Shown here: positions 875 to 59,939 of the stretch, in pieces
How the letters are laid out: the number at the start of each line of letters is the position of its first letter
How positions within the stretch are numbered: position 1 is the stretch's first letter
From: a virus
Lineage: Duplodnaviria; Heunggongvirae; Uroviricota; Caudoviricetes
Virus record (IMG/VR): IMGVR_UViG_3300009093_000042
Location: 1-64,000 of that record
Strand: one strand, 5' to 3'
Length of the DNA: 64,000 nucleotides
Program-made: the position numbers and the translations under genes
Notes under the pieces: model-generated
Told to the model about the DNA's origin: nothing
Seen by the model: only the letters and a program-made list of their open reading frames with translations
The model's database searches: none

Positions 875-892
875 AATGTTTACAATTTTGAG
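875..892 (-). promoter_or_regulatory. conserved TGTTTACA/TGTAAACA promoter-like element abutting ATG of 308..874
   Basis: Minus strand reads CTCAAAATTGTAAACATT directly before the ATG. Confidence 0.5.
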
Positions 893-932
893 ATGCTGTT
901 ATTGGCTTTATAGATTTGATTGTCAACAATTT

Positions 933-1343
933 TTATTTGGACTTCTTCACCGGAGTTTTTGGATCAGGCGCTGTCAATTTGAACGCCGGTGAGCGAATGC
1001 ACAGATTCTGAATCTGGTGGCTGCTGTAATTGCCGTAGAAGACCGAGACTTCATATCCAGGAACACGGCCATGGAGGACATTGAAGATCGTAGTCAATTC
1101 TTCGGTCGGGTCCGTGCTGATCGCCTGGATGTAGCCCTCCTGGTGACTGGAGGCCACAGTATTGATCCCGGCGTTGCGGAGCATACGGACCCATTCTCGT
1201 ACTCCTTCTTCCATCTTGCCGTAGAAGCTATTGTTTGCTTCCAGGCCGAAGCTGATGCTCGCACCGGCTTCATGGGCGGCGCGAACCATGGTTTCCAATG
1301 TAAGGTTTGGTTTTTGCTTTTGTTTAGTTGGTGGCTTTTTCAT
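933..1343 (-). CDS. hypothetical protein (~136 aa, trimmed from ORF 933..1577)
   Basis: ORF 933..1577 overlaps the upstream gene by 185 nt and has a low-complexity N-terminus. Internal ATG at 1343 follows a GGGAAAGGGAAA SD-like stretch and a GC hairpin after the stop of gene 1393..2052. Confidence 0.45.
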   Translation of the reverse strand: MKKPPTKQKQKPNLTLETMVRAAHEAGASISFGLEANNSFYGKMEEGVREWVRMLRNAGINTVASSHQEGYIQAISTDPTEELTTIFNVLHGRVPGYEVSVFYGNYSSHQIQNLCIRSPAFKLTAPDPKTPVKKSK

Positions 1344-1392
1344 TTTCCCTTTCCCGTGCGCGGTCGCTTCCCGTCCGGCGACCGCGTTGAAA

Positions 1393-2052
1393 TCAAGCAG
1401 CTTTTTGGAGCCGTGCCAGGCGCTTTTCCTCGTGCTGAGCGCAGATGGACTCTGGCTTGGGTTTGTCCATGCGGATGACGGCCCAGAAGTGGGTGAGGTA
1501 GCGTTTGGCATCAGCTTCGGTCCAAGCGTGGATGTAAACGCTATTGCTGTCCTGTTCGCCTTTGGTGACATTCTCATCTTTTACTTTTTCTAAGAACGTG
1601 TCGATCTGCTCACGTCGGAGATCGTGCAGGCTCATGTGATAAACTCGCTTGCGACTGCCGACTTTAAGCTTTGGAACGTAACCCAGGTAGTTGATGAAGT
1701 ACCAGTCAGTGCCCCAGGCCCCGCCGTACTCGTTGGGAATCTTTTTCCAGTCGAAGGGAATCATGTCTTCCGGCTCGGTCATTAGCAGGTACCACATGCC
1801 GGTTTCCTTCATGGAGAGATGACCTTCGTAACAGGTCTTATGGACCCACTCGTCGAGCATTCGCACCATGTACTGGTTGCGGAAAGATTCGGCGGTTACG
1901 TCCCATCCCTTTTTACAGATGGGGCATGTTTGACCACGCATGTCGGAGATGATCGTGGAGACAGTTCTCCCGTGTTCGTCCCAACACACGTTTAATTGTC
2001 CGTAGTCATCGAACCCGAGATTGTGAGCGAGGGGTCTTACGATTTGGTTCAT
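1393..2052 (-). CDS. hypothetical protein (219 aa), Cys/His-containing
   Basis: Long ORF with non-repetitive composition (CPICKKGW..HKTCYEGH). Confidence 0.55.
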   Translation of the reverse strand: MNQIVRPLAHNLGFDDYGQLNVCWDEHGRTVSTIISDMRGQTCPICKKGWDVTAESFRNQYMVRMLDEWVHKTCYEGHLSMKETGMWYLLMTEPEDMIPFDWKKIPNEYGGAWGTDWYFINYLGYVPKLKVGSRKRVYHMSLHDLRREQIDTFLEKVKDENVTKGEQDSNSVYIHAWTEADAKRYLTHFWAVIRMDKPKPESICAQHEEKRLARLQKAA

Positions 2053-2272
2053 GTTTGGTGGTTTTAGGTTTGGTAAAATAGCCGAAGCCCTTGGCGCGAA
2101 GCGTGGCCATGGGTGCGCCTTTTGGTTTCACGCTGGCTGAGCCGCCACGCACGAAAAAGTCATGCAGCGCGGTCAGAAACTTCTGTTGCTCCGGGTCATC
2201 GGTTTTGATTTCGAGCAGGCGGCAGCCGTCACTCATGCAGCCCTTGCGGGGCGCTTTGGCGTAAATTTCCAT
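2006..2272 (-). CDS. hypothetical small basic protein
   Basis: 88-aa ORF filling the gap between flanking genes. Overlaps the downstream gene by 47 nt. Confidence 0.3.
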   Translation of the reverse strand: MEIYAKAPRKGCMSDGCRLLEIKTDDPEQQKFLTALHDFFVRGGSASVKPKGAPMATLRAKGFGYFTKPKTTKHEPNRKTPRSQSRVR

Positions 2273-2274
2273 AA

Positions 2275-2924: not shown

Positions 2925-3304
2925 GCTACTTCGAGATCAAATAGTGTAACGGCAAATCTGCTTATGGCGTAATTGATATTCCGGTCGATCACGAGGAGGC
3001 GCTTGGCCACCGGGTGATGCCCGTTTATGTGAACTCTGTTTTGGTCGTCCAACTCCATCGCGAGTTCGTATCCCATCTCGCGAGCTTTTTCCATGCACCG
3101 GAGCCACACCATCTGGGAGGCAATCGGGTTGGCAGTCGGATAAAAAAGTTTTACGTGTTGAAATTTCCAGCCGCTGTCAACGCGGCTGTACCAGTCGTCA
3201 TTCCACAAGGTCCAGCCCATGACCTTTTCAGCAATCACTTTGTCCATTTTTCGATTAGGGCTGTCTTCCACAGGCTTGCTAAAATCTAAGGTCAAAACTG
3301 GCAT
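2921..3304 (-). CDS. hypothetical protein (trimmed; ORF-track start at 3343 is TTG inside the promoter motif)
   Basis: Codon at 3343 is TTG lying within the TTGTTTACAA motif. First ATG is at 3304 (MPVLTLDF...). Confidence 0.45.
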   Translation of the reverse strand: MPVLTLDFSKPVEDSPNRKMDKVIAEKVMGWTLWNDDWYSRVDSGWKFQHVKLFYPTANPIASQMVWLRCMEKAREMGYELAMELDDQNRVHINGHHPVAKRLLVIDRNINYAISRFAVTLFDLEVA

Positions 3305-3330
3305 GTCAGAGATATTTACCTGACGTGACG

Positions 3331-3348
3331 AAATTGTAAACAATTTTT
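3331..3348 (-). promoter_or_regulatory. conserved palindromic promoter-like element
   Basis: AAATTGTAAACAATTTTT. It overlaps the TAA stop of the upstream gene. Confidence 0.5.
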
Positions 3349-3811
3349 ATTTAACTTCGCGATATTCTTTTACCTTAACAAAGGCAAGGACTTCCGAGTC
3401 GTCATTGAAATCGCTTAAGTTGCCGTTGCTACCTGGCAGCTTCTCCCAGATATTACCGTCCTTTTCGAACAGTCCGCCATCAGGAATATCACGGACGGCA
3501 CAAACGCGTCCGGTCGGCACGCATTTCAAGGGCGAACCATCCGGCAGCGTGATCAGACGCATTTCTTTTTTGTTTTTGCGTGCCGCCTGCCTGAGCGTGA
3601 TCGGCACGTAGCAAAACTGATTCGGATCATCGGTGACTGGATCAAACTTCTGCTTCGTGAATCTGCCGTGCCAGGTGCCGGTGTGGCACTCCGAACACAG
3701 GATCATGCCGCTGCTTTTCTTCTTACCGGAGTCAACCAGGCGCGTCCAGTAGTTGCCGTGGAGCGCGGTGTTGTCGATACCGTGGCATTTGTCGCAAACG
3801 AACAGTGGCAT
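3347..3811 (-). CDS. Cys-rich putative zinc-binding protein
   Basis: CDKCHG...CSECHTG...FCY pattern. Ends with TAA overlapping the promoter motif at 3331-3348. Confidence 0.5.
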   Translation of the reverse strand: MPLFVCDKCHGIDNTALHGNYWTRLVDSGKKKSSGMILCSECHTGTWHGRFTKQKFDPVTDDPNQFCYVPITLRQAARKNKKEMRLITLPDGSPLKCVPTGRVCAVRDIPDGGLFEKDGNIWEKLPGSNGNLSDFNDDSEVLAFVKVKEYREVK

Positions 3812-4131
3812 TAGTCAACAATCAGAGTTTTTGAAACAGCGTATTCTCGAAAATCCGGTTTTGGTCGCTTCAGCACCATCTTGCGAAAATTGTCACCGTA
3901 CTCGCCTTCCTCCTCCCATTTCATGGTGCCTTCGGCCAGGCCGACGACGTTCCTGAAAAAGTCGATACCGTGCGTGGTGGACGTGGTCAGTCCGCGTGAA
4001 TACTTCTTCGAGAACCACATCTTCAGGTCCACGAACAGATCGGGGAAGCGCCACGGTGGGGCCAGGTTGAGGATGTGCTCGCACGCTTTTGCGCATTCGA
4101 GCATCGGGTCTGGCGGGGTGGATTCAGTCAT
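3811..4131 (-). CDS. hypothetical protein (trimmed to ATG at 4131)
   Basis: ATG at 4131 forms ATGA overlap with the stop of 4128..4355. GTAAACAT motif lies 4 nt upstream of the ATG. Confidence 0.4.
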   Translation of the reverse strand: MTESTPPDPMLECAKACEHILNLAPPWRFPDLFVDLKMWFSKKYSRGLTTSTTHGIDFFRNVVGLAEGTMKWEEEGEYGDNFRKMVLKRPKPDFREYAVSKTLIVD

Positions 4132-4355
4132 AAGATGTTTACGCTTTGAGCGAAGGTCAGCCTGCCCTTGGAGCGCCCGGTGATCTGGCGTGCGAATGCT
4201 TTTGTTACCAGGCCCTTCGACGTACGATCGAGAGCGATCCATTTCACTTCATTACGCACGTCGGTCATTGTGGGACATTGAAAAGCGCGCACCTGGTTGC
4301 GCTCGCCCGTTACCACAACGGACCAGTGCCCGACCTTATCGCTGTTGTCGATCAT
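4128..4355 (-). CDS. hypothetical small protein
   Basis: 75-aa ORF coupled by ATGA to the downstream gene. Confidence 0.4.
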   Translation of the reverse strand: MIDNSDKVGHWSVVVTGERNQVRAFQCPTMTDVRNEVKWIALDRTSKGLVTKAFARQITGRSKGRLTFAQSVNIL

Positions 4356-4786: not shown

Positions 4787-4788
4787 AG

Positions 4789-5058: not shown

Positions 5059-5302
5059 GGTGTTCCTGGGCTTTCTGTTTTAGTTCCTTCACTGTTTTGG
5101 CGTGGGCCTTGAACCGGCCCTTCCAGAAAAGATCATATCCGTGCTCCGGCTTATGGATGCCGCGAAACGGTCGGCAATCCATGATCACGTACAAGCGGGC
5201 GAACCGCTTGCCGTAATACTGGCCGTCCTCCACCCAGTGGCGGTGCTGGTTCCGGCTGTAGCGCCAGTCCAGGGGTTTACTGCTTGGCGCGGTCTTCGAC
5301 AT
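5036..5302 (-). CDS. hypothetical basic protein (trimmed from ORF 5036..5569)
   Basis: Only the C-terminal 88 aa from ATG at 5302 look protein-like. The upstream part is low-complexity S/K/R and overlaps the ACP gene in another frame. Confidence 0.3.
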
Positions 5303-5531
5303 ACTTTTGGAGCTTCCCGAACGTCTGGAGCTTTTCCGCGTCCTCGTCCGAGATTTCGAAACCAAATTCTTCCTCAATGGCCATGAGGACTTCAACGGCG
5401 TCGAGGGAGTCCGCTCCGAGATCGTCAATGAAGTTGGTTTCGGGTTTGAGCTGCGATTCATCGACGCTAAGCTGCTCGACGATGACTTCTTTAAGGCGCT
5501 GTTCGACAGTTTTATTAGTAGAATTTGACAT
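5277..5531 (-). CDS. acpP: acyl carrier protein
   Basis: [22 protein letters not shown] is the canonical ACP phosphopantetheine-attachment motif (DSL). 84 aa and acidic. Promoter motif lies 9 nt upstream. Confidence 0.8.
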
Positions 5532-5535
5532 AGGT

Positions 5536-5553
5536 GAAAATGTTTACGTTTTG
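5536..5553 (-). promoter_or_regulatory. promoter-like element upstream of ACP gene
   Basis: Minus strand reads TTGACC-N17-CGTAAACATTTTCACCT-ATG. Confidence 0.5.
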
Positions 5554-5573
5554 TCTTTCGGTTGGTCAAGCGC

Positions 5574-7309: not shown

Positions 7310-7335
7310 GCACAATACACTTACACTATTGACGT

Positions 7336-7354
7336 AAAATTGTAAACATTTTTT
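7336..7354 (-). promoter_or_regulatory. conserved palindromic promoter-like element
   Basis: AAAATTGTAAACATTTTTT, between the terminator of 7412..8431 and gene 6986..7309. Confidence 0.5.
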
Positions 7355-7360
7355 ATTACG

Positions 7361-7392
7361 AAAAAAGCGGCCTGGAATTGCTCCCAGGCCGC
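7361..7392 (-). terminator. rho-independent terminator after 7412..8431
   Basis: Minus strand GCGGCCTGG-GAGCAATT-CCAGGCCGC followed by TTTTTTCG. Confidence 0.7.
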
Positions 7393-7411
7393 TTGGTTTA
7401 ATCGAGTGATT

Positions 7412-8431: not shown

Positions 8432-8467
8432 CCACCAAAGAACGAAACCCGCAGAAAGGGAATTTGT

Positions 8468-8692
8468 TTACGCGGCGAAGGACTGTTCTTCGTGCTTCGG
8501 CTCTTTTGTCTTTTCGGATTTCGGGGGTTGACCAAGCGCGGAAAGCGGAATCGCGACCATTCCCAGGAGCTTCATCTGATGCTCGCTCATGGGCTTGCCG
8601 CAGGCTCCGCATTTTTCGTTTTTGGCACCGGTTCCAATGGTGAGCGTTTTGATTTTATCAATGAACGCCTTGTTAGCTGATTTCTTGCTCAT
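8468..8692 (-). CDS. hypothetical small protein with CxxC
   Basis: 74-aa ORF containing CGACGK. Confidence 0.4.
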   Translation of the reverse strand: MSKKSANKAFIDKIKTLTIGTGAKNEKCGACGKPMSEHQMKLLGMVAIPLSALGQPPKSEKTKEPKHEEQSFAA

Positions 8693-10429: not shown

Positions 10430-10470
10430 TTAATGTAAACAAAAGGACTTTAGCGCGGACAGCGCTGTCG
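10430..10470 (-). promoter_or_regulatory. promoter-like element plus small hairpin upstream of the SPFH operon
   Basis: AATGTAAACAAAAGG, then an AGCGCggacaGCGCT hairpin. Confidence 0.4.
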
Positions 10471-10908: not shown

Positions 10909-10926
10909 GAAAATGTAAACAATTTA
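10909..10926 (-). promoter_or_regulatory. conserved palindromic promoter-like element
   Basis: AAAATGTAAACAATTTAC in the intergenic region between 10948..11244 and 10496..10852. Confidence 0.45.
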
Positions 10927-12703: not shown

Positions 12704-12734
12704 GGCGGCCCTGAGTGGGGCCGCCATTTTTATT
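12704..12734. terminator. GC hairpin plus T-run oriented on the plus strand inside a minus-strand gene array
   Basis: GGCGGCCC-tgagtg-GGGCCGCC followed by ATTTTTATT. May act bidirectionally or on antisense transcripts. Confidence 0.4.
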
Positions 12735-12960: not shown

Positions 12961-12995
12961 GTGAAAAATGTAAACAATTTATTGTTGGTGTCAAT
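12961..12995 (-). promoter_or_regulatory. sigma70-like promoter with -35 TTGACA
   Basis: Minus strand TTGACA-N16-TACATT-TTTCAC-ATG. The core is AAATTGTTTACATTTTTCAC. Confidence 0.55.
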
Positions 12996-16070: not shown

Positions 16071-16087
16071 GAAAATGTTTACAAATT
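16071..16087 (-). promoter_or_regulatory. conserved palindromic promoter-like element
   Basis: GAAAATGTTTACAAATT, 4 nt upstream of the ATG of 15635..16066. Confidence 0.45.
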
Positions 16088-16838: not shown

Positions 16839-18299
16839 TCACAGCTTTCGGTCGCGGATCGCCTGGGCCAGTTTGGAACCAATCATGGTCAGTGCCTTGT
16901 AGTACTCCTCGCTCAGGTGATTCTCGCTGTACTCGTGGCCGAACTCGTGGATGATCAGGTCATCAATTTCCTGCTGGTTCGTCTCACGATTGAACCAGTC
17001 GTAGCCGAGCCGACCGACGTTGAACACCAGGGTCCCGCTCGGGCCGTAAGTGGCACCGTAGGGCCAGGTTGCTTCCGCCGCAAAGACCACGCTGATACTT
17101 TTGCCGAGCACGATCCGGGCGAACGCTTTGGCGTAAGTTTCCACGTGCTGCATCCCGACCGTTACTTCCTTGACCAGCTTCAATGGCGCGCCGTCCGGGC
17201 TGTAGGGCTTGGGTGAAGGCGTGACCTGACCGGCAGGCAGCATCGCGCCCACGCTCTTGACGTTACTCCAGGCGGCCTTGCTGAGCTGATTGCCGGTGAC
17301 CACCGTGAAGCCAGCGGCAGCGGCACGGCTGTTGGATTCGATGTCGGACGGATCGTAGATGACGCGTTTCTCACCGAAGCGCTGAGTCATGCACGCCTCG
17401 ACCGCTGCGGGTGCGATGTCCGGTGAAGTCAAAGCTTCAGCGGCCCAGGACGTGTTGGCATCCTCGCTGTCGATGATTGTTGACATGTTATTCACAGCGG
17501 CTACTGCGAGCTGTTTTCGGAAGGAAGGCAGGACTTCTTCACGGTCCATCGTGAGCGGAACTTTCTGACCCACGTTGAAGATGTATTTGCCGTCGATCTC
17601 GCACACGGGTATCCCCATCTCGTAGATGGCAGCCGGGCAGCCTTCGCCGGGAACAGCGCGGTAAACTTCCACATTCGTCAGCCGGGTGGTTTTGACCATG
17701 TTGCCTTCACCGTCAGCGACCTCAGTGGCCAGGGCAGCTTTGAATCGCGTCATGCCCGGCGCACTGACGAGGGCTTTGCCGTTGATAGTCGTGATGATGG
17801 TCTTTTCGCCAACCGGAGGAATCAGCCGAGCGCAGGCATTTACAATCTGGTCGATCTCGTCCTTTTTCACGCGAATCATCATTGAGATCACCGAACCCTT
17901 TTCCCGCTTCAATCCTGGCGACCGTTGCCTGCCGTGTTTGGTAAAATTGACGGTGCCGGTGGTTGTGGAGACGCAGGCTTCTGAAGCGAGGGCCAGCACC
18001 AGCTTCTCGCCGAGGTTGAACCGACCGCGCTTTTCCGGGTTGGCCTTTTTCTTGGACTCAGCGAACAAGGTGTAGGCGTGCGTGAGGTCAGAGAATCCAT
18101 CCGGCGCATCGTCCGTCACACGCAGCATCGCCTGGCCAGGATACCCCGGCACCGACTCAAGCGTGACATCGACCTGAGTGACGCCTTCTTCGTCCCAGGC
18201 ATTCTGGATCAGTTCAAAGATAATGAACTCCTTGCCCTTGCGCTGGAGGATTTTCGCCAGCCCGTCTTTGTCTATTTCAAACCATGATGAAGTTTTCAT
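16839..18299 (-). CDS. GHKL (Bergerat-fold) ATPase fused to a C-terminal HExxH zincin-like motif
   Basis: N-box FELIQNAWDE, G1-like VTDDAPDGF, G2-like RGRFNLGEK, then IIHEFGHEYSENH near the C-terminus. ORF-track start 18317 is TTG inside the promoter. First ATG at 18299 sits 7 nt from a TACAAT -10 box. Confidence 0.6.
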   Translation of the reverse strand: MKTSSWFEIDKDGLAKILQRKGKEFIIFELIQNAWDEEGVTQVDVTLESVPGYPGQAMLRVTDDAPDGFSDLTHAYTLFAESKKKANPEKRGRFNLGEKLVLALASEACVSTTTGTVNFTKHGRQRSPGLKREKGSVISMMIRVKKDEIDQIVNACARLIPPVGEKTIITTINGKALVSAPGMTRFKAALATEVADGEGNMVKTTRLTNVEVYRAVPGEGCPAAIYEMGIPVCEIDGKYIFNVGQKVPLTMDREEVLPSFRKQLAVAAVNNMSTIIDSEDANTSWAAEALTSPDIAPAAVEACMTQRFGEKRVIYDPSDIESNSRAAAAGFTVVTGNQLSKAAWSNVKSVGAMLPAGQVTPSPKPYSPDGAPLKLVKEVTVGMQHVETYAKAFARIVLGKSISVVFAAEATWPYGATYGPSGTLVFNVGRLGYDWFNRETNQQEIDDLIIHEFGHEYSENHLSEEYYKALTMIGSKLAQAIRDRKL

Positions 18300-18349
18300 A
18301 CTCAGGATTGTAAACAATTACAGTCCAATGTCAATACACAAAGTGTATT
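18300..18349 (-). promoter_or_regulatory. promoter with -35 TTGACA, -10 TACAAT, near-leaderless start, plus upstream ATACAC-AAA-GTGTAT palindrome
   Basis: Minus strand CACTTTGTGTATTGACA-N16-TACAAT-CCTGAGT-ATG. Perfect 6-bp inverted repeat at 18335-18349. Confidence 0.55.
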
Positions 18350-20622: not shown

Positions 20623-20675
20623 GCCAGAAATGTAAACGAAATAGAATTGTTGTCAATACCCAAAGTGTAAATAGT
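20623..20675 (-). promoter_or_regulatory. promoter with -35 TTGACA, -10 TACATT, near-leaderless start
   Basis: Minus strand CACTTTGGGTATTGACA-N16-TACATT-TCTGGC-ATG. Shares GTATTGACA upstream context with the promoter at 18300-18349. Confidence 0.55.
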
Positions 20676-20744: not shown

Positions 20745-20782
20745 GGGTGCCCGGCCCTCTTAGGGTTGGAGGGCCGGGTTTG
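20745..20782. other. strong GC hairpin (CCCGGCCCTC-ttagggttg-GAGGGCCGGG) followed by TTTGTTGG
   Basis: 10-bp perfect stem. Its role as a terminator versus a leader structure of the small plus ORF is unclear. Confidence 0.4.
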
Positions 20783-20793: not shown

Positions 20794-20988
20794 ATGAAAT
20801 TTCGCTTAATAGCAGCACCGGTTGAGCGAGGGGACCTAAACAGGATTTTCTCTCTGTTCGAAGTCGCGCAATTCCTCGAAATAGCTGTTGAAGACCTGGC
20901 CCTGCGCGGAAAACTCTCGGGAAACGTCAGCCTGGATGGCTATACTTTCGAGGTTGTTCGCAGCGTGCAGGGTTCAAGTTTCAAATAG
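20794..20988 (+). CDS. hypothetical small protein (plus strand)
   Basis: GGAG sits 5 nt upstream of the ATG. Preceded by a strong GC hairpin. Convergent with the HerA-like gene. Confidence 0.25.
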   Translation: MKFRLIAAPVERGDLNRIFSLFEVAQFLEIAVEDLALRGKLSGNVSLDGYTFEVVRSVQGSSFK

Positions 20989-22734
20989 CGTTGCGCTGGC
21001 TCGGATTCTCAGCTCGCGATCCTGTTCCATCAGGTCGGGAGCGCGCAGGGCTGTTAGCGCGTTTCCAAACGTGCTGGAGTTCACGCTGTATCCCGTCGCG
21101 TCTGAAATCTCCTGGCGCGTGGCAAACTCCGGGAAGCGCGTCAGCAGGTAACTGAAAATCTTTCCCGCTGCGCCGCTCAGCTTATTCACCCAGAGATTTC
21201 TCAGAGCTTCACCTTTTGGCAACGGTTCAAAGTTTTTCAACAGGGCGCGAGCCTCGGGTATTGCAGTCAGCGTGTCGCCGCTGCGGATGATCGCGTTGTT
21301 TTTGGAAAGCTCGGTCAGCCCGTTGCCGAACGTGCTTGAAGTCACGCTGTAGCCGGATAGAAGCGCGGCCTGGCTGCGGGTCCGCCCTTCGGGATAACTG
21401 AGCAGCACGGTCAGAATCGCTGACGCACACTTGGAAAGTCCACCCGAGGATGGATCATGCACCGGCGATGAAAAATCGTGCCGAGTGGCGACAACTGGAG
21501 CCGGGATCGCCTTGGGTGCTACCGGTGTCGCAACCGCCATACTCGTCTTCTGGATCACGATCAATTTGTTTACAATATCGGTGCGTAGCGCTACCGCCTG
21601 ATTGGCCAGCTCAGAGAAGTTCACCACCGTCTTGCTGAAAGTAGTGCAGGCTTCCTCGATTCGCTTCAGAGTTTTTTCCTGCTCGGGCGTTAGCACGGGA
21701 ACTTCGACCTTTTCGATTCGCGTGTCCACGACCGTCACCGGCCTGGGCGCGACAGCGGCCTGTTCCGCTTTTACCAGCTTTTGTTTCAAAACAGCCACTT
21801 GTTGTTTCAAATGGGCCGGATCATTCTCGTTGGCGCGCTCAATCGTTTCACGAATCTCATTTCCCAGGCGCACGAGATCGACCTTGGCCAGCTTTTGCGG
21901 GATGATGACTTTTTCACCTGCCTTGGGCGTGGCTGATGAGTTGAAGGTCCGGCGCTGCCGGATGGTGATCCGTTGAAAGATGCGCAGCCAGCCGGGCGAC
22001 CATATCCAGCCCTCGCCGGTGTGAAGCGATGCCAGGGACTGCATCATGATGTCGCGCTGTTCCTTCGTGCCGTTGCGCTTCACCCAATCGTCGATGGCGT
22101 CCTGGTCCTGGGGCGAGTTGAGCTGAAGTACGATCAACAGTTCGGTCTGAGTGAAGACATTCTTATTGAGCACAGCCGGGCGCTGCGTGATCAGCGTCGT
22201 GCCAATCCCACGGATGCCTCCCCGGCGCACCAGGGCTTCGAAGGCTCCGAGCATTCGCTGCTGGCCGTCCTGGGGTTTCTGGGGAGCGAAAGAGTCGGCT
22301 TCGTCCACGAACAGGTGCAGCGGATTGCGGTTTTGATTTTTACGCCGGTAGAGGCGTTCGGCAAAGTCAGTGGCGAAGCGATCCTGCTGTGCGTTGCTTT
22401 CGGTCGAGGAGAGGTCGATGACGTAGTAGCCAGGATGGTCAACCACCATGTCGGCGATGACCCGGCCTGCCGTATATTCCAGTGGAACGTCCGCGTGCTC
22501 ACCGCCGATGATCACCACTGGCAAACCTTCGCGCAGACCGTTTGCTGATGAACGCAGGCCCCACCAGGCACCGGTCGGATCGAGCACGGCAAACGGCTGT
22601 GACGCCGCCACCAGCTCCTCGGCGATCACCGATCCTGTGTAGGTCTTACCGACCCGGCGCATGGCCATGATGGAACACGTCTGGGTGACGAAATCCAACG
22701 GCAGCGTCAGTTCCTTTGAGATTTTGAGGCTCAT
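20974..22734 (-). CDS. HerA/FtsK-superfamily P-loop NTPase (DUF87-like) with tandem C-terminal winged-helix-like repeats
   Basis: Walker A MAMRRVGKTY, AVLDPTGAWWGL, Walker B LHLFVDEADSF, and GIRGIGTTLITQRP. Two C-terminal repeats GYSV(T/N)SSTFGN(G/A)LT. Confidence 0.6.
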   Translation of the reverse strand: MSLKISKELTLPLDFVTQTCSIMAMRRVGKTYTGSVIAEELVAASQPFAVLDPTGAWWGLRSSANGLREGLPVVIIGGEHADVPLEYTAGRVIADMVVDHPGYYVIDLSSTESNAQQDRFATDFAERLYRRKNQNRNPLHLFVDEADSFAPQKPQDGQQRMLGAFEALVRRGGIRGIGTTLITQRPAVLNKNVFTQTELLIVLQLNSPQDQDAIDDWVKRNGTKEQRDIMMQSLASLHTGEGWIWSPGWLRIFQRITIRQRRTFNSSATPKAGEKVIIPQKLAKVDLVRLGNEIRETIERANENDPAHLKQQVAVLKQKLVKAEQAAVAPRPVTVVDTRIEKVEVPVLTPEQEKTLKRIEEACTTFSKTVVNFSELANQAVALRTDIVNKLIVIQKTSMAVATPVAPKAIPAPVVATRHDFSSPVHDPSSGGLSKCASAILTVLLSYPEGRTRSQAALLSGYSVTSSTFGNGLTELSKNNAIIRSGDTLTAIPEARALLKNFEPLPKGEALRNLWVNKLSGAAGKIFSYLLTRFPEFATRQEISDATGYSVNSSTFGNALTALRAPDLMEQDRELRIRASATLFET

Positions 22735-23663: not shown

Positions 23664-24371
23664 TTATCCCCAGTAAACCAGCGGGTCTCTCCAGCTCGGG
23701 AACTTCTGGGTCAGCCACACATTGGCCGCTTCTTTGGCCTCATCAATGGCTTTGGATCGCGCCATAGCTTCTTCGCGTTTGTCCCAGTTCGCTTCCGGCA
23801 ATGGGTCGGATGAGTGCAGGACTTCTTTAGTAGCGGTGTCGATGACATCCACTCGCACGAATTTTGAGCTGACGCCCATTTTGTCTGCTTTATGCTCGCC
23901 GGTGGCGCGGTCGTAAATCTCCTCCTTCTTTTCGTCGAGGTAGGTGCTTCTGAAAGTGTAGCGCGGATTGAGACCGATGTGTGCGTTGTAATCGTAAAAA
24001 GCGGCTTTGAAGAAAATGCTACCGCGTTTGCGACCTTTGTCGTCCAGCAGATCACTCCACATGGAATGGCCGCTCGGACGTTTGGTCCAGCCTTTTGGGA
24101 AACTGCATTTCCAGAAAATACGGTCGGTCTTTTCGCCGAAGGTGAAGCCCAGTTTTTCGAAGTCCTTCACGGTGCAACCCTGCATGTCGATGGGCAGTGT
24201 CTCAAGCTTGGCCTGGGCCTGCTGGCCTTCCCGCTCCTGGGCTTCGATGCCGCCCGGCGTGGCAGCACGAATAGAGTTTGGTATATCTCCGACAGCGGCG
24301 GCGGCCATGGACGCCATGTTCGGTCCGCCCCGATGGACGTGGGTGAATCCTCGTTCTTTGCGTGTTTTCAT
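23664..24371 (-). CDS. hypothetical protein (235 aa)
   Basis: Minus ORF. Confidence 0.5.
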   Translation of the reverse strand: MKTRKERGFTHVHRGGPNMASMAAAAVGDIPNSIRAATPGGIEAQEREGQQAQAKLETLPIDMQGCTVKDFEKLGFTFGEKTDRIFWKCSFPKGWTKRPSGHSMWSDLLDDKGRKRGSIFFKAAFYDYNAHIGLNPRYTFRSTYLDEKKEEIYDRATGEHKADKMGVSSKFVRVDVIDTATKEVLHSSDPLPEANWDKREEAMARSKAIDEAKEAANVWLTQKFPSWRDPLVYWG

Positions 24372-24405
24372 TGATTGGTTGGTTAGGTGGTTAGGTGGTT
24401 AATTC

Positions 24406-25127: not shown

Positions 25128-25188
25128 TGAGTGAAAAATGTAAACAATTTTTTGCTTACGTCAACGACGAAGTTCGTTCTTTAAGGAT
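25128..25188. promoter_or_regulatory. divergent intergenic region with a single palindromic motif serving the minus lipoprotein gene and the plus gene 25189..25449
   Basis: GAAAAATGTAAACAATTTTTT. Minus strand reads TTGACG-N16-TACATT-TTTCACTCA-ATG. The plus gene has an AAGGA SD. Confidence 0.5.
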
Positions 25189-25449
25189 ATGGCACTGAAT
25201 AAAGCACAAAAGTTTACGAAAACATCGTTCAAGGCGCAGGCGGATGCGATTGGAAATATCCTCCGTACCAATACCCTCCTGAGCGATGAGGAGAAGGCGT
25301 CCCTGAATGAAACGTTTGGCGTTCTGACCTGGATGAACCAGTACCAGTTGCACCAGGAAGCAGGCAACAAGGACATCCCGGAAAATATCCGGGCGCAGAT
25401 TTTCGATGGTCGCCCCGGCGTGAAGCCGGTGCCTCCGACCGTCGATTAA
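25189..25449 (+). CDS. hypothetical protein (plus strand, 86 aa)
   Basis: AAGGA SD sits 4 nt before the ATG. It shares a 61-nt divergent intergenic region with one palindromic promoter motif. The minus-strand ORFs overlapping it are antisense. Confidence 0.5.
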   Translation: MALNKAQKFTKTSFKAQADAIGNILRTNTLLSDEEKASLNETFGVLTWMNQYQLHQEAGNKDIPENIRAQIFDGRPGVKPVPPTVD

Positions 25450-25817: not shown

Positions 25818-25824
25818 ATTTTAA

Positions 25825-26517
25825 CTACGCGAACTGCACGACGGCGATGTCGCTGATCTTGAAAACCGGATTCGTATGGTTCCAGTTGATGTTCAGGTGA
25901 TCGAGCACGCCATAGGTGCTTTCTCGCATAATTCCCCAGTCATTTAATGGGGTAAAGCTGTGGCCTGCCAACGAGGCTATTTCATTCACCACTTGGGCGT
26001 CAAAAGTGGCCTTATCAACATCAGTGCAGGCGGTGTCGGTATTTCTGAAAAGCTGGATGTGCCAGTCAGGATTGCCTTTGATGATGTCCACGAAGAACAG
26101 TGTGCGGTTAGCATCTGTTGCTCCGATGTTCCACGTGCTCGGCTCCAAATCTCCGCCGCCGCCCGTTCCGGCCAGTAGAACACCGTTCCCCCATTCTTCA
26201 GCCGCTCCAAAGGAACAGCCGTAGCGTGTCGGCCCGGTGGCCCGAACGAACGTGTTGAAATTGCCCACCATGTTTGCTCCAAAAAAGTGCGTCGGAGCTA
26301 AGCCGGAATCACCAAAGATGCTGGTATCTCCGGTGCAGATGCCTACGTGAAGACTGCACGAACTTACATCTGCGCCCGAGTCAGCCATGCACAAGCGCAT
26401 TCCGATCCGCAGCTTTTGCCACGTGCTGTTGAGCATGAAAAACGGCTGGCGAGCGAACCGACTGGCATCAAGAATGAGCCGATTCTCGCCGCTAATGCTG
26501 GAAATGATGGCGGACAT
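25825..26517 (-). CDS. virion-associated protein, tandem paralog A
   Basis: About 60% identical to 26521..27207 (MSAIISS.GENRLILD.SRFARQPFFM ... KISD.AVVQ.A). Confidence 0.55.
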   Translation of the reverse strand: MSAIISSISGENRLILDASRFARQPFFMLNSTWQKLRIGMRLCMADSGADVSSCSLHVGICTGDTSIFGDSGLAPTHFFGANMVGNFNTFVRATGPTRYGCSFGAAEEWGNGVLLAGTGGGGDLEPSTWNIGATDANRTLFFVDIIKGNPDWHIQLFRNTDTACTDVDKATFDAQVVNEIASLAGHSFTPLNDWGIMRESTYGVLDHLNINWNHTNPVFKISDIAVVQFA

Positions 26518-35376: not shown

Positions 35377-35410
35377 GCCCTAACTACAGACTCCGGCTTA
35401 GCCGTTTACT

Positions 35411-41591: not shown

Positions 41592-41604
41592 AAATGTTTA
41601 CAAA
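41592..41604 (-). promoter_or_regulatory. promoter-like motif filling the 13-nt gap between stop and start
   Basis: Minus strand TAA-TTTGTAAACATTT-ATG. Confidence 0.4.
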
Positions 41605-43016: not shown

Positions 43017-43042
43017 TGAATTGCGGTATCGGTTCGGTAGAA

Positions 43043-43075
43043 GCGCCGGGGTGACTCCCCGGCGCTTTCTTTTAT
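43043..43075 (+). terminator. rho-independent terminator after plus-strand membrane-protein gene
   Basis: GCGCCGGGG-tgac-TCCCCGGCGC followed by TTTCTTTTAT. Confidence 0.7.
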
Positions 43076-51989: not shown

Positions 51990-52009
51990 GCTTTAACTAC
52001 GCGACCGGC

Positions 52010-55068: not shown

Positions 55069-55448
55069 GATCTGAAGTCCCTGCTCTTGATCATTTTCTT
55101 GGCATCGGCCAGCTCAGTGGTGTCCCCGCGTTTTACTAGCACTCCGTCCGGGCTGTCAGGAGTGACCTTAAATTCATAAATGACGTATTCATCCACGGTT
55201 GACTTCTGACCCCACCCAAGATGATGAACCTTGTGGTTGTAAACCACGATGAAGTTTCCGTATTTGTAGATTTTCTTGGTGCCGTGGAATCGCGTGGCCC
55301 TGCGGTTGAAGAAAAGAGGTTCGGCTGCCTTGATCTCATCCAGAGTGTAGATTCTGTCCTCTGGTTGAGCAGAGAGCATTTTCAAATCGTCTGAGCCAGA
55401 CATGTCATCGTCTGCTTCCGTGACGAACGCTAGAATTTCCCTTATCAC
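55038..55448 (-). CDS. hypothetical protein (136 aa)
   Basis: Minus ORF. Confidence 0.45.
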   Translation of the reverse strand: MIREILAFVTEADDDMSGSDDLKMLSAQPEDRIYTLDEIKAAEPLFFNRRATRFHGTKKIYKYGNFIVVYNHKVHHLGWGQKSTVDEYVIYEFKVTPDSPDGVLVKRGDTTELADAKKMIKSRDFRSWRQRILGQQ

Positions 55449-55456
55449 TGCCGTAA

Positions 55457-55699
55457 CTACGTTTCTCTGGAAGTCCGTGAGACCCTTGATCTCGCTAGGA
55501 GAGATTCAAAGAACTCCTGGGCCAGTCGGCAGGCGCAGGTAGGATGGTTCTTTTGAACTTCCTCTGCGCAGTCGATGCAGACCACCAGGACTGTTTCCAA
55601 ATCACTGAACTTGAGAGCGACCGCTTCTGACACTGGAACAGCGTTACGACATTTGTCGCATTTCAGCTCCGGTCTTCCGAATTCATTTTGCGTAAGCAT
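55457..55699 (-). CDS. zinc-ribbon small protein
   Basis: CDKC...CIDC...CAC pattern. A hairpin lies just upstream of its start. Confidence 0.45.
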   Translation of the reverse strand: MLTQNEFGRPELKCDKCRNAVPVSEAVALKFSDLETVLVVCIDCAEEVQKNHPTCACRLAQEFFESLLARSRVSRTSRET

Positions 55700-55705
55700 T
55701 TTACC

Positions 55706-55762
55706 AGCGACCGCCGTTAGGCGGTCCGCGAGACGCTTCGAGAATTTTGTTTTTCCAGGAAC
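55706..55762. promoter_or_regulatory. GC hairpin and AT-rich inverted repeat in the putative origin region
   Basis: GACCGCC-gtta-GGCGGTC hairpin, then TTTTGTT-tttccagg-AACAAAA inverted repeat. Confidence 0.4.
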
Positions 55763-55847
55763 AAAACTTTTCCCGTAACTGCGCTGTTAATACTGTTTCT
55801 AACTGACCAACTTCCAGAACAGCCTGAACGACTTAAGTATGAAAAGG

Positions 55848-55975
55848 CATCCGAGTTTGCAAATCAGCCATCCGACTTTGTAGTTCAACCATCCGACTTT
55901 GCGGATCAAGGGTCCGACTTTGCAGGTGAGCCATCCGAGTTTGCGGAACAAAGGTCCGAGTTTGCGGGTGACAGC
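55848..55975. repeat. six tandem 21-bp direct repeats (iteron-like), core TCCGA(G/C)TTTGC
   Basis: Core hexamer starts at about 55850, 55871, 55892, 55913, 55934 and 55955, an exact 21-bp period. The array abuts the stop of the winged-helix gene. Confidence 0.7.
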
Positions 55976-56695: not shown

Positions 56696-56730
56696 TCAGT
56701 GCAGAACGGAAACCAGTTCTAAGCCGCTGG

Positions 56731-58542: not shown

Positions 58543-58556
58543 CTCTGGAGAGAACC

Positions 58557-58576
58557 AAAAAAGTAAACAAATTATT
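58557..58576 (-). promoter_or_regulatory. conserved promoter-like element upstream of helicase gene
   Basis: Minus strand TAA-TTTGTTTACTTTTTTGG, then a 20-nt leader to the ATG. Confidence 0.45.
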
Positions 58577-59900
58577 TTGCTGGAGGCTCAGGAGTGGGGA
58601 TAATCTTTCTGAGCTGTTCGATCACATCCGCTGGACCGACAGCGCCCAGACACTCGCAAATTTGGCGGTCTTTGCGCGGCGGGCAGTATCTCGGGAACGT
58701 ACCCGCGTAAGCGAAGCACGGTGAAAATTGGCAGACTTCCTTTTTCCACACCGGGAAGTGATTTTTGTAGTACTTCACGCGGTTCATGGGATTGCACGGA
58801 CCCCAGAGGCCGACGCAAGGCGTTTCCAGCGACCCGGCGATGTGGACCATCATCGAGTCTGGACCGATCACGACCGCTGCCCGGCTGGCCACGGCCCATA
58901 GCTCGCGCAGGCTGGCCGCCTGGTAAATCTGGATGTTGTGCCGGAGGGTGCCGGAGCCTTTGCACTTGGGACAAATTTCTTGCTTTTTCCTGCCTGCTGC
59001 GGCGATGGACTCAGTGGCTTTCGTCACTTCGGCCAGGGCCTTGTCCGCTGATACGTTCGCCATGTCGTGTACGATCGGCACGGGCGGCGGTTCGACCACG
59101 TTGGATTCAAGGCGGCCCTTGCCGTTGCATTTCTGGCATTCGACGGCCTTTCGGTACTGTTCGGGAACGAACTTGTCGTAGAGTGCCAGCCAGTGAACGT
59201 TCGGGTAGGCTTCCGCGACTTTGCTCAGCAGGTAGGCGCTTTCGTTGGGCGGCATACAGCGCACCGGGTTGGCCGCTGAGAGTTGGTACATGCCGATGGG
59301 TTTTCCCTGGAACTGCATGGCGGCCTGCATCTCCAGGAAGGTGAAGTTCGGGTGATAGACTTTTAGTTTCGGGTCCACTGCGTCCGGGTTGATGCCGACG
59401 CGCCGGAGCATTTGGTCGAGCGGATGGAGCTGATCCACATGTTCTTCGGCATTGACGACAGTCTCGAAAATCACCCAGTAATCGTACATCTTAAACTGCT
59501 CGTACTGGATGGGGATGTTTTGGATGGACTTAACGAAAGGCATGTTCCACCAGCAGCTCACGTTGCCGGGATCGACCAGCACGTGGACTTCAAAGCCGTA
59601 GGACGCGAGGATGCGCGCAAACGGCCAGGTCATCACCTGGTCGCCGTAGCCGCCGCTGCCGTTGTAGAGTAGCAGCTTCTGGGTGCCGGGCTTCTTCGCG
59701 TTTGCGTTGAAATTGGGAATGCGGTTCTCGATGCGGCTCCACTTAAAGAGCCGGTCTTTCACTTCTTCCTTCGCGATCATGCGGTTGAAGTGAGATGCGG
59801 CGATCACGTAATCACGCCCGGCTTCGAAGACCATGTTGGTCGCGCCTGCGGATTTTTCCATCGTCAGTGAAACGTGTTCTGCAAAAGTGACAAGATTCAT
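58572..59900 (-). CDS. GT9-family (heptosyltransferase-like) glycosyltransferase with zinc-ribbon insertions
   Basis: IGPDSMMVHIAGSLETPCVGLWGPCNP matches the GT9 C-terminal D..H.A....P.V.LFGP motif. CQKCNGKG and CPKCKGSG inserts. ORF-track start 59906 is TTG, trimmed to ATG at 59900. Confidence 0.55.
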   Translation of the reverse strand: MNLVTFAEHVSLTMEKSAGATNMVFEAGRDYVIAASHFNRMIAKEEVKDRLFKWSRIENRIPNFNANAKKPGTQKLLLYNGSGGYGDQVMTWPFARILASYGFEVHVLVDPGNVSCWWNMPFVKSIQNIPIQYEQFKMYDYWVIFETVVNAEEHVDQLHPLDQMLRRVGINPDAVDPKLKVYHPNFTFLEMQAAMQFQGKPIGMYQLSAANPVRCMPPNESAYLLSKVAEAYPNVHWLALYDKFVPEQYRKAVECQKCNGKGRLESNVVEPPPVPIVHDMANVSADKALAEVTKATESIAAAGRKKQEICPKCKGSGTLRHNIQIYQAASLRELWAVASRAAVVIGPDSMMVHIAGSLETPCVGLWGPCNPMNRVKYYKNHFPVWKKEVCQFSPCFAYAGTFPRYCPPRKDRQICECLGAVGPADVIEQLRKIIPTPEPPAK

Positions 59901-59920
59901 GCCCAAAAGAACACGAACAA

Positions 59921-59939
59921 CTTTGTTTACAAATATGAG
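59921..59939. promoter_or_regulatory. single palindromic motif in divergent intergenic region (GT9 gene on minus, 59978..60388 on plus)
   Basis: CTTTGTTTACAAATATGAG, centred in the 77-nt gap. Confidence 0.45.

Follow-up and report, generated by a model that had tools for sequence, protein, structure and literature searches.

The stretch of DNA analysed here (64,000 nucleotides, hereafter the window) comes from the 245-kb contig of an uncultivated jumbo phage that is remotely T4-like, its T4-like traits being Portal_T4, gp25, an SbcD/gp47-like protein, Cpn10 and a UvsW-like helicase. The G+C content of the window was measured as about 55%, lower than the 57% given in a preliminary description of the sequence, and 3,977 bases (6.2%) are non-coding. 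The virion-gene (structural) block spans 26-58 kb. Shine-Dalgarno enrichment is absent, the signal being present in 14 of 82 upstream regions compared to 13.2 in random windows, and internal operon genes of the phage are also without a Shine-Dalgarno sequence.

Frequency, placement and form of the TGTWWACA element

Exact copies of the 8-mer TGTWWACA number 15 in the window; dinucleotide-preserving shuffles gave 1.47 ± 1.30 and never reached 15, and the preliminary description was right that the motif is too frequent for chance. Non-coding DNA, 6.2% of the window, holds 11 of the 15 (877, 3335, 7341, 10434, 10914, 12969, 16076, 18309, 25139, 41595 and 59924; binomial p = 5.8e-11), which is the opposite of an element found as often inside coding sequence as upstream of starts. 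Five one-mismatch copies were identified at 4136, 5541 and 8465 (TGTTTACG), 20631 (TGTAAACG) and 58562 (AGTAAACA). All 16 positions listed previously are real, with the 8-mer or a one-mismatch copy 2-6 nt away, but the "about 16 full copies" reported there are 11 full and 5 partial ones, and four exact copies within coding regions (21567, 35209, 37047 and 37965) had been missed. The 21567 copy, located in the ATPase gene, was not counted as belonging to the element, since its bases code for a conserved peptide, IVNKLI, also present in relatives. Only one of the 11 intergenic exact copies (41595) lies in the structural block, the other 10 being outside it, and a scan of the window found no copy before the portal or gp25 genes. 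About 15 of the 82 genes bear the motif. Loci from bacterial genomes (45) and from unrelated phages (two) that share only the ATPase gene are free of it.

The core had been described as a palindrome; it is not a true one, as its centre is always AA or TT and never AT or TA (14 TT and 6 AA sites, no other dinucleotide). Conservation is nevertheless mirror-symmetric, G2/C7 and T3/A6 being invariant in all curated sites. The first core position has C in 7 sites out of 30 and the last has G in only 2. Upstream of the core the flank is A-rich and downstream it is T-rich; the AAAAT/ATTTT flanks reported earlier hold as a tendency but not as a fixed sequence. As had been claimed, the core is found either way round relative to the gene: among the 15 curated window sites, 8 read YGTTTACA and 7 read YGTAAACA in gene orientation.

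Sites in the window

The sites, together with one terminator, are as follows.

18309-18345, minus strand: putative full composite promoter, with CACTTT (18340-18345), TTGACA (18329-18334), a 12-nt spacer and TGTTTACA (18309-18316)
20631-20667, minus strand: putative full composite promoter, with CACTTT (20662-20667), TTGACA (20651-20656), a 12-nt spacer and CGTTTACA (20631-20638)
12969-12994, minus strand: predicted promoter, with TTGACA (12989-12994), a 12-nt spacer and TGTTTACA (12969-12976)
25139-25164, minus strand: predicted promoter, with TTGACG (25159-25164), a 12-nt spacer and TGTTTACA (25139-25146)
5541-5548, minus strand: flipped one-mismatch core, CGTAAACA in gene orientation, with TTGACC 15 nt upstream
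16076-16083, minus strand: flipped core, TGTAAACA in gene orientation, with a weak TTGATT 15 nt upstream
3335-3342, minus strand: core TGTTTACA, 4 nt after the TAA of gene 3347-3811; ATG at 3304, 30 nt downstream
7341-7348, minus strand: core TGTTTACA, directly after the terminator at 7365-7394; ATG at 7309, 31 nt downstream
7365-7394, minus strand: intrinsic terminator, a 13-bp stem followed by U6, ending the upstream transcription unit before 7341
10434-10441, minus strand: core TGTTTACA with no -35 match; ATG at 10408, 25 nt downstream
10914-10921, minus strand: core TGTTTACA with a weak TCGACT 14 nt upstream; ATG at 10852, 61 nt downstream
8465-8472, minus strand: flipped one-mismatch core CGTAAACA; ATG at 8431, 33 nt downstream
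4136-4143, minus strand: flipped one-mismatch core CGTAAACA; the ATG is 4 nt away if taken at 4131, and 31 nt away if taken at 4104 with the gene caller
877-884, minus strand: flipped core TGTAAACA; the distance to the start is 2 nt for the first ATG in the ORF (874) and 74 nt for the ATG chosen by the gene caller (802)
41595-41602, minus strand: flipped core filling a 13-nt gap, with a TAA 2 nt before it and the ATG at 41591 3 nt after it
59924-59931, minus strand: flipped core between divergent genes; ATG of the GT9-like gene (59900) at 23 nt, plus-strand ATG (59978) at 46 nt
58562-58569, minus strand: degenerate core, reading TGTTTACT in gene orientation; the UvsW-like helicase gene starts 19 nt downstream (ATG at 58542)

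The site at 18309 matches sigma-70 better than any other in the window (TTGACA-16-TACAAT, 11 of 12 positions) and stands 9 nt upstream of the ATG (18299) of a 486-aa GHKL/HExxH protein, a start confirmed by N-terminal conservation. The 333-aa gene behind the 20631 site starts at 20622, 8 nt downstream, as confirmed by conservation with its L002 orthologue, and a GC-rich hairpin (20749-20778) lies upstream of the site. The 12969 site precedes a 76-aa gene by 8 nt (ATG at 12960) and has orthologous sites at L002:18234 and L003:13164; the 25139 site, in a divergent gap adjoining the plus-strand gene 25189-25449, precedes a 98-aa gene by 11 nt (ATG at 25127) and has orthologous sites at L004:7525 and L003:2017. 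An acyl-carrier-protein gene starts 9 nt downstream of the 5541 core (ATG at 5531), and a 143-aa gene at the same distance from the 16076 core (ATG at 16066), whose counterparts at L002:15070, L003:9470 and L058:10720 have the same orientation and again lie 9 nt from the start.

Several copies were thought to follow a TAA stop directly, which is true of only two, 3335 and 41595. The 3335 core may act as a -35 hexamer (TTTACA-N16-TAAATA-N8-ATG). The TTGACA at 921-926 lies 36 nt upstream of the 877 core. The 59924 site is conserved at L075:9970, and the same relative has an exact TGTTTACA 3 nt before its UvsW-like helicase gene. Strong hairpins are found upstream of motif sites; the terminator at 7365-7394 has a folding energy of -24.8 kcal/mol (z = -6.3). 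On the opposite strand, a TTGACG (7329-7334) lies 6 nt from the 7341 core.

Proposed promoter layout across related phages

A search of related phage genomes found the same element in eight related contigs, which together with the window gave a family set of 45 curated intergenic sites. The usual layout in this set is TTGAC(A/G)-N12/13-YGTTTACA-(T/A)T with the start codon 8-12 nt later, and the strongest sites add CACTTT 5 bases upstream of TTGACA. An ORF with ATG begins 8-12 nt downstream in 24 of the 45 sites and one with GTG 7-12 nt downstream in 3 more; five sites are 2-4 nt and 11 are 20-34 nt from the start codon, the distance classes being 2-4, 8-12, 20-25 and 26-34 nt. TTGACR at N12/13 was present in 20 of the 45 sites, 17 of these having the ATG at 8-12 nt, while the remaining 25 are without a -35 hexamer. 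The composite TTGACR-N12/13-YGTTTACR occurs four times in the window against 0.01 expected, and these four sites are its top sigma-70-type matches (TTGACA-16-TACAAT or TACATT, 9-11 of 12). In an alignment of ten promoter regions the blocks CACTTT, TTGACA and GTTTACA are invariant with free spacers between them, the footprint thus being kept in relatives while the spacers drift.

The best explanation, and one that we regard as fairly probable, is that the element forms the -10 region of sigma-70-type promoters for early-type, non-structural genes of this jumbo phage. The predicted -10 hexamer, [T/A]ACA[T/A]T, would consist of the last four bases of the 8-mer and the next two, placing A at -11 and T at -7. 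In this register every site has the A, and 37 of the 45 have the final T; T at the predicted -7 was seen in 21 of 24 sites of the 8-12 nt class and in 16 of 21 elsewhere, a difference that is not significant. YGT(T/A) would lie just upstream of the hexamer, and the T-rich stretch after it is expected to melt easily. At strong sites the putative -35 hexamer TTGAC(A/G) is 16-17 nt upstream of the -10 hexamer (TACAWT), with CACTTT further up in the strongest. The reader of the sites would be the host sigma-70-type holoenzyme, the genes driven would be early ones, and we infer that the motif sites are transcription-unit starts.

The hexamer is 6-7 nt, occasionally 9-10 nt, from the ATG in most sites. 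Transcripts would thus begin at, or a few bases from, the A of the ATG, and the predicted mRNAs are therefore probably leaderless, which suits this genome since the Shine-Dalgarno signal is absent. For the five sites 2-4 nt from a start codon a -10 role for that gene is impossible, and the 41595 core was ruled out on these geometric grounds as the -10 of the ATG at 41591. Flipped sites count against the promoter reading in having only a weak -35-like TTG, two bases further away; the -12 base in these sites is A and not the consensus T because the centre allows nothing but TT and AA. The 25 sites without a -35 hexamer and the 11 sites 20-34 nt from the start codon also count against it.

Comparative sequence evidence supports the promoter reading well. 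The more distant relative L080 has TTGACA-N17-TATAGT-N5-ATG before the orthologous GHKL gene, and another, L079, has TTGACA-N17-TACTTT-N6-ATG and TTGACA-N18-TACATT-N6-ATG. Since these relatives keep TTGACA-N17/18-variable -10-N5/6-ATG, the promoter layout is family-wide and the fixed 8-mer is the form that the -10 region takes in one subclade. The earlier proposal of a core promoter is therefore retained as to the -10 slot of sigma-70-type sites, but not as a promoter of a phage polymerase, which was dropped because the geometry is that of the host sigma-70-type holoenzyme. The element is a new promoter consensus and not a new kind of system.

Alternative readings and known promoter classes

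A sigma-70 -10 hexamer does not need C at -10 or GT at -15/-14, and the near-invariant, mirror-symmetric 8-mer exceeds what sigma-70 needs. The mirror symmetry, the AA/TT centre, the two orientations and the copies 2-4 or 20-34 nt from the start make a superimposed regulator possible, and that a dimeric DNA-binding protein also reads the 8-mer and shuts the promoters off is tentatively entertained, well behind the promoter function itself. Less likely is an operator in its own right, where a two-fold symmetric protein of phage or host binds TGT-WW-ACA with its A/T flanks and represses, or less likely activates, the promoters that it overlaps, the resemblance to -10 and -35 regions being incidental. 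The invariant, mirror-symmetric G2/C7 and T3/A6 with A-rich upstream and T-rich downstream flanks, the occurrence of both orientations with AA or TT centres only, and the several distances to start codons are all consistent with such an operator, as is the 877 core, which would be near +10 of the promoter with TTGACA at 921-926. That distant relatives have ordinary, variable -10 hexamers in this slot also speaks for an operator, the fixed 8-mer being an additional constraint of one subclade. Dyad-symmetric conservation (here around an asymmetric AA/TT centre), overlap with -10/-35 regions and orientation independence are shared with known symmetric operators overlapping promoters. However, the C and G variation at the outer core bases tracks gene direction and not core orientation, and a promoter, but not a freely placed operator, is expected to show the sharp peak 8-12 nt before the ATG and the fixed 12-13 nt to TTGACA. 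For a helix-turn-helix dimer a core of eight base pairs is also short. The about 82 window proteins showed no HTH, RHH or other DNA-binding domain, the flank contributed only an HU-like protein, and the candidate 86-aa product of the conserved opposite-strand small gene 25189-25449 has a plain helical hairpin fold to which no structure matched significantly. Half of the LacI/GalR-type consensus TGTAAACGTTTACA is identical to the 8-mer, but this 14-bp palindrome was rejected as no second half-site exists; the best 14-mer matches have 2-3 mismatches and are the 8-mer plus A/T flank.

Two readings involving a phage factor are both considered improbable. By the first, a symmetric transcription factor or sigma-like protein of the phage reads the duplex 8-mer either way and took over the -10 slot of ancestral sigma-70 promoters in one subclade. 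If true, this would be a private switch over the whole set of leaderless early genes, and a -10-side counterpart of the sigma appropriation by MotA/AsiA of T4, which acts at -35. By the second, the element is a promoter for a phage specificity factor, a gp55-like sigma or other factor on the host polymerase, and corresponds to a G+C-shifted T4 late promoter (TAT-AA-ATA versus TGT-AA-ACA) in no need of a -35. In T4, late promoters have a near-invariant 8-bp element at positions -13 to -6 (PMC1524935); its layout, TNT-AA-ANA, is shared by the core, and the phage is distantly T4-like. The many sites lacking a -35 hexamer agree with this reading, and a start 6 nt after the 8-mer would leave leaders of only 2-6 nt. 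The likeness to TATAAATA, which is served by gp55, gp33 and gp45, thus lies in an almost invariant 8-bp element of the -10 region; the core (TGTAAACA/TGTTTACA) deviates from it in two bases and, unlike the directional late promoters of T4, is found either way round. The element here is moreover usually paired with a -35 hexamer, and a gp55-type factor, having no region 4, would gain nothing from TTGACA at a fixed spacing. It is also almost absent from virion genes, as only 1 of 11 intergenic copies is in their block and none precedes portal or gp25. Neither gp55, gp33 nor a sigma homologue was found in the about 72 kb inspected (the window and about 8.5 kb of flank) of the 245-kb contig, and a sliding clamp was not detected in the same region.

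Very improbable is an RNA-level site, for translation initiation or an RNA-binding protein, replacing Shine-Dalgarno in the manner of a RegA-type translational operator: the element is 2-12 nt upstream of many start codons in a genome without a Shine-Dalgarno signal, five times exactly at the ribosome-binding-site position, but only about 15 of 82 genes carry it, its two orientations are two different RNA sequences, the conserved upstream TTGACA and CACTTT with free spacers are DNA-level signals, Rfam gave no match, and under the sigma-70-type promoter reading most copies would not be transcribed.

A layout close to that of the proposed sigma-70-type promoters is found in the leaderless promoters of Actinobacteria, Deinococcus and lambda PRM-cI, where a TANNNT-type -10 about 6-8 nt before the ATG sets both transcription and translation start. 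The -10-to-ATG arrangement is shared, whereas the hexamer here is inside a fixed mirror-symmetric 8-mer and the internal operon genes are Shine-Dalgarno-less as well. The Bacteroidota sigma-A promoter has TTTG at -33 and TAnnTTTG (TAHHTTTG, -12 to -5) with a near-invariant G-5, and Shine-Dalgarno-less translation is typical there (PMC6847099), leaderless mRNAs being rare at about 5% (PMC9723704). TACATTTn matches its T-12, A-11, T-8, T-7 and T-6, and the TTG-N19/20-TA spacing fits. This promoter type was ruled out by G-5 in 0 of 19 sites and a full E. coli-type TTGACA upstream. To our knowledge, Bacteroidota do not use this hexamer.

T4 early promoters, which are read by host sigma-70, likewise form dense arrays of strong near-consensus sites before small non-structural genes, with a phage-specific consensus over the -35/-10 framework and an A/T-rich upstream context. 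Their -35 consensus is GTTTAC at -36 to -31 (PMC1524935). This hexamer also lies inside the 8-mer here, mostly in the -10 and not in the -35 region, the -35 here being an ordinary TTGACA. The sites here differ further in that the core is also flipped and the start codon follows within 8-12 nt, so that a leader is probably absent and with it a Shine-Dalgarno sequence. While the majority of sites are at 8-12 nt, 6-7 of the 45 are at a T4-early-like 29-33 nt from the ATG, and at three of those (3335, 7341 and L002:21656) a TAnnnT-like hexamer is rightly placed for a T4-early reading.

Abundance and anatomy of the element

Across its 64 kb the window contains 15 copies of the 8-mer TGTWWACA, whereas dinucleotide-preserving shuffles contain 1.47 ± 1.30 and none attains 15; the preliminary description was right to call it too frequent for chance, although the G+C content put there at about 57% is about 55% as measured. 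The sixteen positions listed in that description are all real to within a few bases, but only eleven carry the exact 8-mer, the other five (4136, 5541, 8465, 20631 and 58562) being one-mismatch versions. The core had also been described as a palindrome, whereas all 15 exact copies are TGTAAACA or TGTTTACA, with a centre of AA or TT and never of AT or TA. Both core orientations relative to the gene were seen, as reported (YGTTTACA and the flipped YGTAAACA). A self-trained model with 82 genes assigns 93.8% of the window to coding sequence and places almost every gene from 1 to 60.4 kb on the minus strand. The remaining 3,977 non-coding bases contain 11 of the 15 exact copies (binomial p = 5.8e-11), which upholds the claimed preference for intergenic sequence. 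Ten of these eleven lie outside the virion-gene block at 26-58 kb, and the small-gene region at 0-26 kb holds nine. Among the four intragenic copies, the one at 21567 encodes a conserved peptide that is also carried by relatives.

Read in gene orientation, the 8-mer is preceded by an A-rich flank with a T immediately before it and followed by (T/A)TTT, the 18-bp form of the site being AAAATTGTTTACATTTT. All 30 curated sites agree at G2, T3, A6 and C7, while the first base is C in seven and the last base G in two. The exact composite TTGAC(A/G)-12 nt-YGTTTACA is present in four copies against 0.01 expected, and the same four sites top a generic sigma-70 scan (TTGACA/TTGACG-16 nt-TACAAT/TACATT, 9-11 of 12). 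The flipped-core sites have the same flanks as the TT-centre sites and the ATG stands exactly 9 nt downstream in five of them; their -35-like element, where present, is a weak TTGnnn lying 2 bases farther away. The composite sites and the neighbouring signals, among them strong RNA hairpins ahead of motif sites, are as follows.

12969, 18309, 20631 and 25139: exact composite, TTGAC(A/G)-12 nt-YGTTTACA, with ATG 8-11 nt later
18340-18345 and 20662-20667, minus strand: CACTTT exactly 5 nt upstream of TTGACA, at two of the four composite sites
7365-7394: textbook terminator, -24.8 kcal/mol, then U6, 16 nt before the 7341 copy
20749-20778: hairpin with a 10-bp GC stem, between the ATPase gene and the 20631 promoter
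12704-12725: hairpin with an 8-bp stem, after the gene of a 76-aa protein

The GC-rich hairpins at 12704-12725 and 43040-43068 have T-runs on the plus strand, and the former, in a region with minus-strand genes only, may be a bidirectional terminator. At 7317-7348 on the plus strand, the 7341 copy is preceded by ACACTTacactaTTGACGtaaaat, a composite-like arrangement with a spacer of 6 nt instead of 12 that faces the terminator at 7365-7394 and may represent a promoter that is antisense or vestigial.

Related genomes and the probable promoter layout

Relatives were found through homologues of window proteins (loci L002, with 49% G+C, L003, L004 and L075) and by scanning collections for CACTTT-N5-TTGACA-N12/13-YGTTTACA (L052, on a 238-kb IMG/VR contig, L056, L058-L060 and L069), chance matches in unrelated AT-rich contigs being discarded. 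The 8-mer is enriched 6-20 fold in these close relatives, so that the element does recur in related phage genomes. The subclade that has it comprises the window, L002-L004, L052, L058-L060 and L075; as a recurrent element it is lacking in L076, L079 and L080. It is absent from 45 bacterial-genome loci and 2 unrelated phage loci that have the ATPase gene alone in common with the window. The latter two, L077 and L078, were rejected as family members, having an ATPase of 47-53% identity without synteny or motif.

An ATG-ORF begins 8-12 nt downstream in 24 of 45 curated intergenic sites, and a GTG 7-12 nt downstream in three more. TTGACR stands at N12/13 in 20 of the 45, and 17 of these 20 have ATG at 8-12 nt. 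When ten promoter regions from five genomes were aligned, T.CACTTT, T.TTGACA and T.GTTTACA.T were invariant and the spacers had diverged freely. The start codons are real, for both the 333-aa and the 486-aa protein match their orthologues from the initial methionine onward. The CACTTT(G) before TTGACA in the strongest promoters, invariant across five genomes, is replaced by TTTATTTG or TTTAATG in more distant relatives; its possible roles are those of an activator site or a component of an UP-like element.

Two distant members were reached through the 486-aa GHKL/HExxH protein, L079 (58% identity, 50% G+C) and L080 (54% identity, 52% G+C), in which the 8-mer is not recurrent and the promoter layout is retained. 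L080 has TTGACA-N17-TATAGT-N5-ATG before the orthologous GHKL/HExxH gene; L079 has TTGACA-N17-TACTTT-N6-ATG and, at a second site, TTGACA-N18-TACATT-N6-ATG, with TACATT inside TGTCTACATT. The slot of the 8-mer is thus elsewhere in the family an ordinary variable -10 hexamer, with a canonical -35 and a start codon after 5-6 nt, which makes [T/A]ACA[T/A]T (motif bases 5-8 and two more) the most economical -10 register in the window. The 8-mer can in this way be traced through the family: distant members have free hexamers where the subclade has a fixed 8-mer.

The element therefore probably marks promoter-like starts of transcription units, serving for the most part as the -10 region of sigma-70-type promoters of leaderless genes, as the comparative sequence evidence suggests. 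The -10 hexamer [T/A]ACA[T/A]T would lie 16-17 bp from TTGACA and 6-7 nt from the ATG in either core orientation. The usual distance from -10 to start site in sigma-70 promoters puts the start at or next to the A of the ATG, and leaderless mRNAs are predicted for this reason. These would fit a genome in which Shine-Dalgarno-like tetramers precede 14 of 82 genes against 13.2 in random windows, that is, without enrichment. As a general TANNNT peak in front of all genes was not found, the predicted leaderless layout is restricted to the motif sites.

Among known elements it is nearest to phage early promoters such as those of T4, which the host sigma-70 holoenzyme reads and which have a consensus specific to the phage (PMC1524935). 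From the distribution of the copies and the host-type -35 hexamer, which resemble early promoters of T4-type phages, we infer the label "early". The small genes at 0-26 kb include those of an acyl carrier protein, an SPFH protein and an Acb2/Tad1-like protein. The small-gene region (5277-5531 and others) also encodes a DUF7352 protein, and the Acb2/Tad1 hairpin domain is an anti-CBASS/Thoeris sponge fold; these contents are consistent with a putative early, anti-defence block. What is new is a consensus, an unusual, symmetric and flippable variant of a known element, and not a new kind of system; literature searches in full text, which paired the 8-mer with phage and promoter, gave no description of it. 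Leaderless early mRNAs without Shine-Dalgarno sequences, as predicted, would be unusual for T4-type phages.

Misfits, rival readings and known systems

The preliminary description had offered a promoter or an operator for a dimeric regulator; the former has gained comparative evidence (the pairing with -35 and the -10 slot in relatives), the latter no candidate regulator. Some features of the 8-mer nevertheless sit badly with a plain -10 and leave room for a symmetric protein. The invariance of G2/T3 is mirrored by A6/C7, and sigma-70 needs neither C at -10 nor GT at -15/-14. Where an ATG-ORF lies 5-13 nt away from YGTNNACAWT, 14 sites have TT as the centre and 6 have AA, with no third variant, so that the 8-mer acts like a single duplex sequence insertable in both directions. 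Copies also stand at distances unsuited to a -10. Five sites are 2-4 nt from the start codon, two of them in the window where a public gene caller favours a downstream ATG, and the close ATG appears real at 41595 and at L075:11752; eleven sites lie 20-34 nt upstream. At three of these, 29-33 nt away, TTTACA could be a -35 (TTTACA-N16/17-TAAATA, TAAGTG or TAGGAT, then 8-9 nt to ATG), a reading that would resemble the T4 early -35 consensus GTTTAC (PMC1524935). T at the predicted -7 is not significantly commoner in the 8-12 nt class than in other sites.

An operator function superimposed on these promoters, with a symmetric DNA-binding protein recognising the 8-mer as well, is accordingly plausible, though at a probability well below even; that the 8-mer is solely an operator seems unlikely. 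Against both, no DNA-binding domain appeared in a search of the window proteins, about 72 kb of the 245-kb contig having been read in all. The conserved 86-aa gene on the opposite strand (25189-25449) was rejected as regulator, its product being modelled as a plain helical hairpin (mean pLDDT 68) with no structural match (best Foldseek E = 1.6). A LacI/GalR-type operator was dismissed as its 14-mer was not found. Promoters read by a phage sigma factor are less likely still, neither gp55, gp33 nor a sigma factor being found in the right flank. The T4 late promoter TATAAATA shares the T-N-T/AA/A-N-A layout of the 8-mer, but the 8-mer departs from it in sequence, in orientation, in having a conserved -35 hexamer and in hardly occurring at virion genes. 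The Bacteroidota -7 element TAHHTTTG, with its nearly invariant G-5, matches the 8-mer region in part; G-5 is missing, and upstream stands the E. coli-type TTGACA, a hexamer not used by Bacteroidota (PMC6847099). A role at the RNA level is discarded, with no Rfam match in the window, the element at about 15 of 82 genes only, and two orientations that would be different RNAs.

On the promoter reading, an 8-mer laid over an ordinary -10 slot would offer a tractable case of a phage adding its own control layer to host-type promoters. The model covers a clade of uncultivated phages of 170-260 kb from soil and fresh water, whose proteins are almost wholly unannotated, and may serve to delimit transcription units and early genes.

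The source phage and other elements of the window

The window DNA is bases 143,284-207,283 of the 245,196-bp metagenomic contig ena:ERZ27252312:k141_4270398, and locus L074 is 100% identical to the window. No near match was present among deposited phages (megablast of 50,697 phage records with 42 kb of the window as query), and an IMG/VR search seeded with the ATPase protein gave no match. Very few window proteins are recognised by Pfam and PHROGs: a baseplate wedge subunit, tail-fibre-like proteins, endonuclease VII, a holin, an RNA-ligase-like protein and a UvsW-like helicase, with Portal_T4, gp25, an SbcD/gp47-like nuclease and Cpn10 just beyond the window edge. Judged by these parts the phage is a remote T4-type myovirus, and a GT9-like protein and others common to many 170-260 kb contigs place it among uncultivated jumbo phages that form a clade. 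The host can be presumed not to depend on Shine-Dalgarno pairing, though the promoters carry an E. coli-type -35 hexamer; the leaderless prediction would narrow it to one with a sigma factor reading TTGACA and ribosomes independent of such pairing. Sources of homologues, bacterial genome contigs (only distant ATPase homologues from many phyla, all without motif), tRNA genes (none in the window) and tblastn with the portal protein (only Flavobacterium and Microcystis phages, 20-23% identity) were none of them decisive for the host.

Further elements and genes of the window are these.

25822-25828, 35381-35387, 51994-52000 and 55454-55460, minus strand: GTAGTTA, second recurrent start-proximal element
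upstream of the starts at 22734, 8431 and 59900, and of 20261 in related locus L073: GTTCTT(T/A), third element, 5-6 nt before ATG
55848-55971: array of 5.6 copies of a 21-nt unit, plus-strand consensus CATCCGACTTTGCAGATCAAC
24380-24401: 8-nt unit TGGTTAGG repeated 2.8 times, aaccacctaaccacctaacc in gene orientation
20974-22734, minus strand: 586-aa ATPase, HerA/DUF87-type P-loop, two C-terminal repeats (GYS..SGGF.NAL..LR)
16839-18299, minus strand: 486-aa GHKL/HExxH protein, behind the strongest promoter

GTAGTTA (6 copies against 1.36 expected) lies exactly 4 nt upstream of starts, once 5 and before the portal gene 9, mostly before virion genes and often with GTG as start. It also precedes the portal gene in L073 and the portal and giant-protein genes in L075 and L076, being kept at orthologous positions even in the distant L076, which is without TGTWWACA; it could be a late-gene signal of the family or a termination-reinitiation junction. 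GTTCTT(T/A) is present in 5 upstream regions where 0.21 are expected. L075 and L076 conserve it ahead of the GT9-like and portal genes, and at the portal gene it stands directly upstream of GTAGTTA.

The iteron-like array at 55848-55971, within a gap of the gene model (55404-55975) that also holds an unselected 80-aa ORF (55457-55699), may be an origin or regulatory site. The repeat at 24380-24401 occupies the gap immediately upstream of gene 23664-24371. The 586-aa ATPase, weakly called a large terminase by PHROGs, has homologues of 45-50% identity both in unrelated phages and in MAGs that span many bacterial phyla, and its gene is thus apparently mobile. Among close relatives the 486-aa protein keeps 69-91% identity; a GHKL-ATPase-like motif, ELIQNAWDE, stands in its N-terminal part (relatives match PF13589) and a HEFGHE metalloprotease motif in its C-terminal part.
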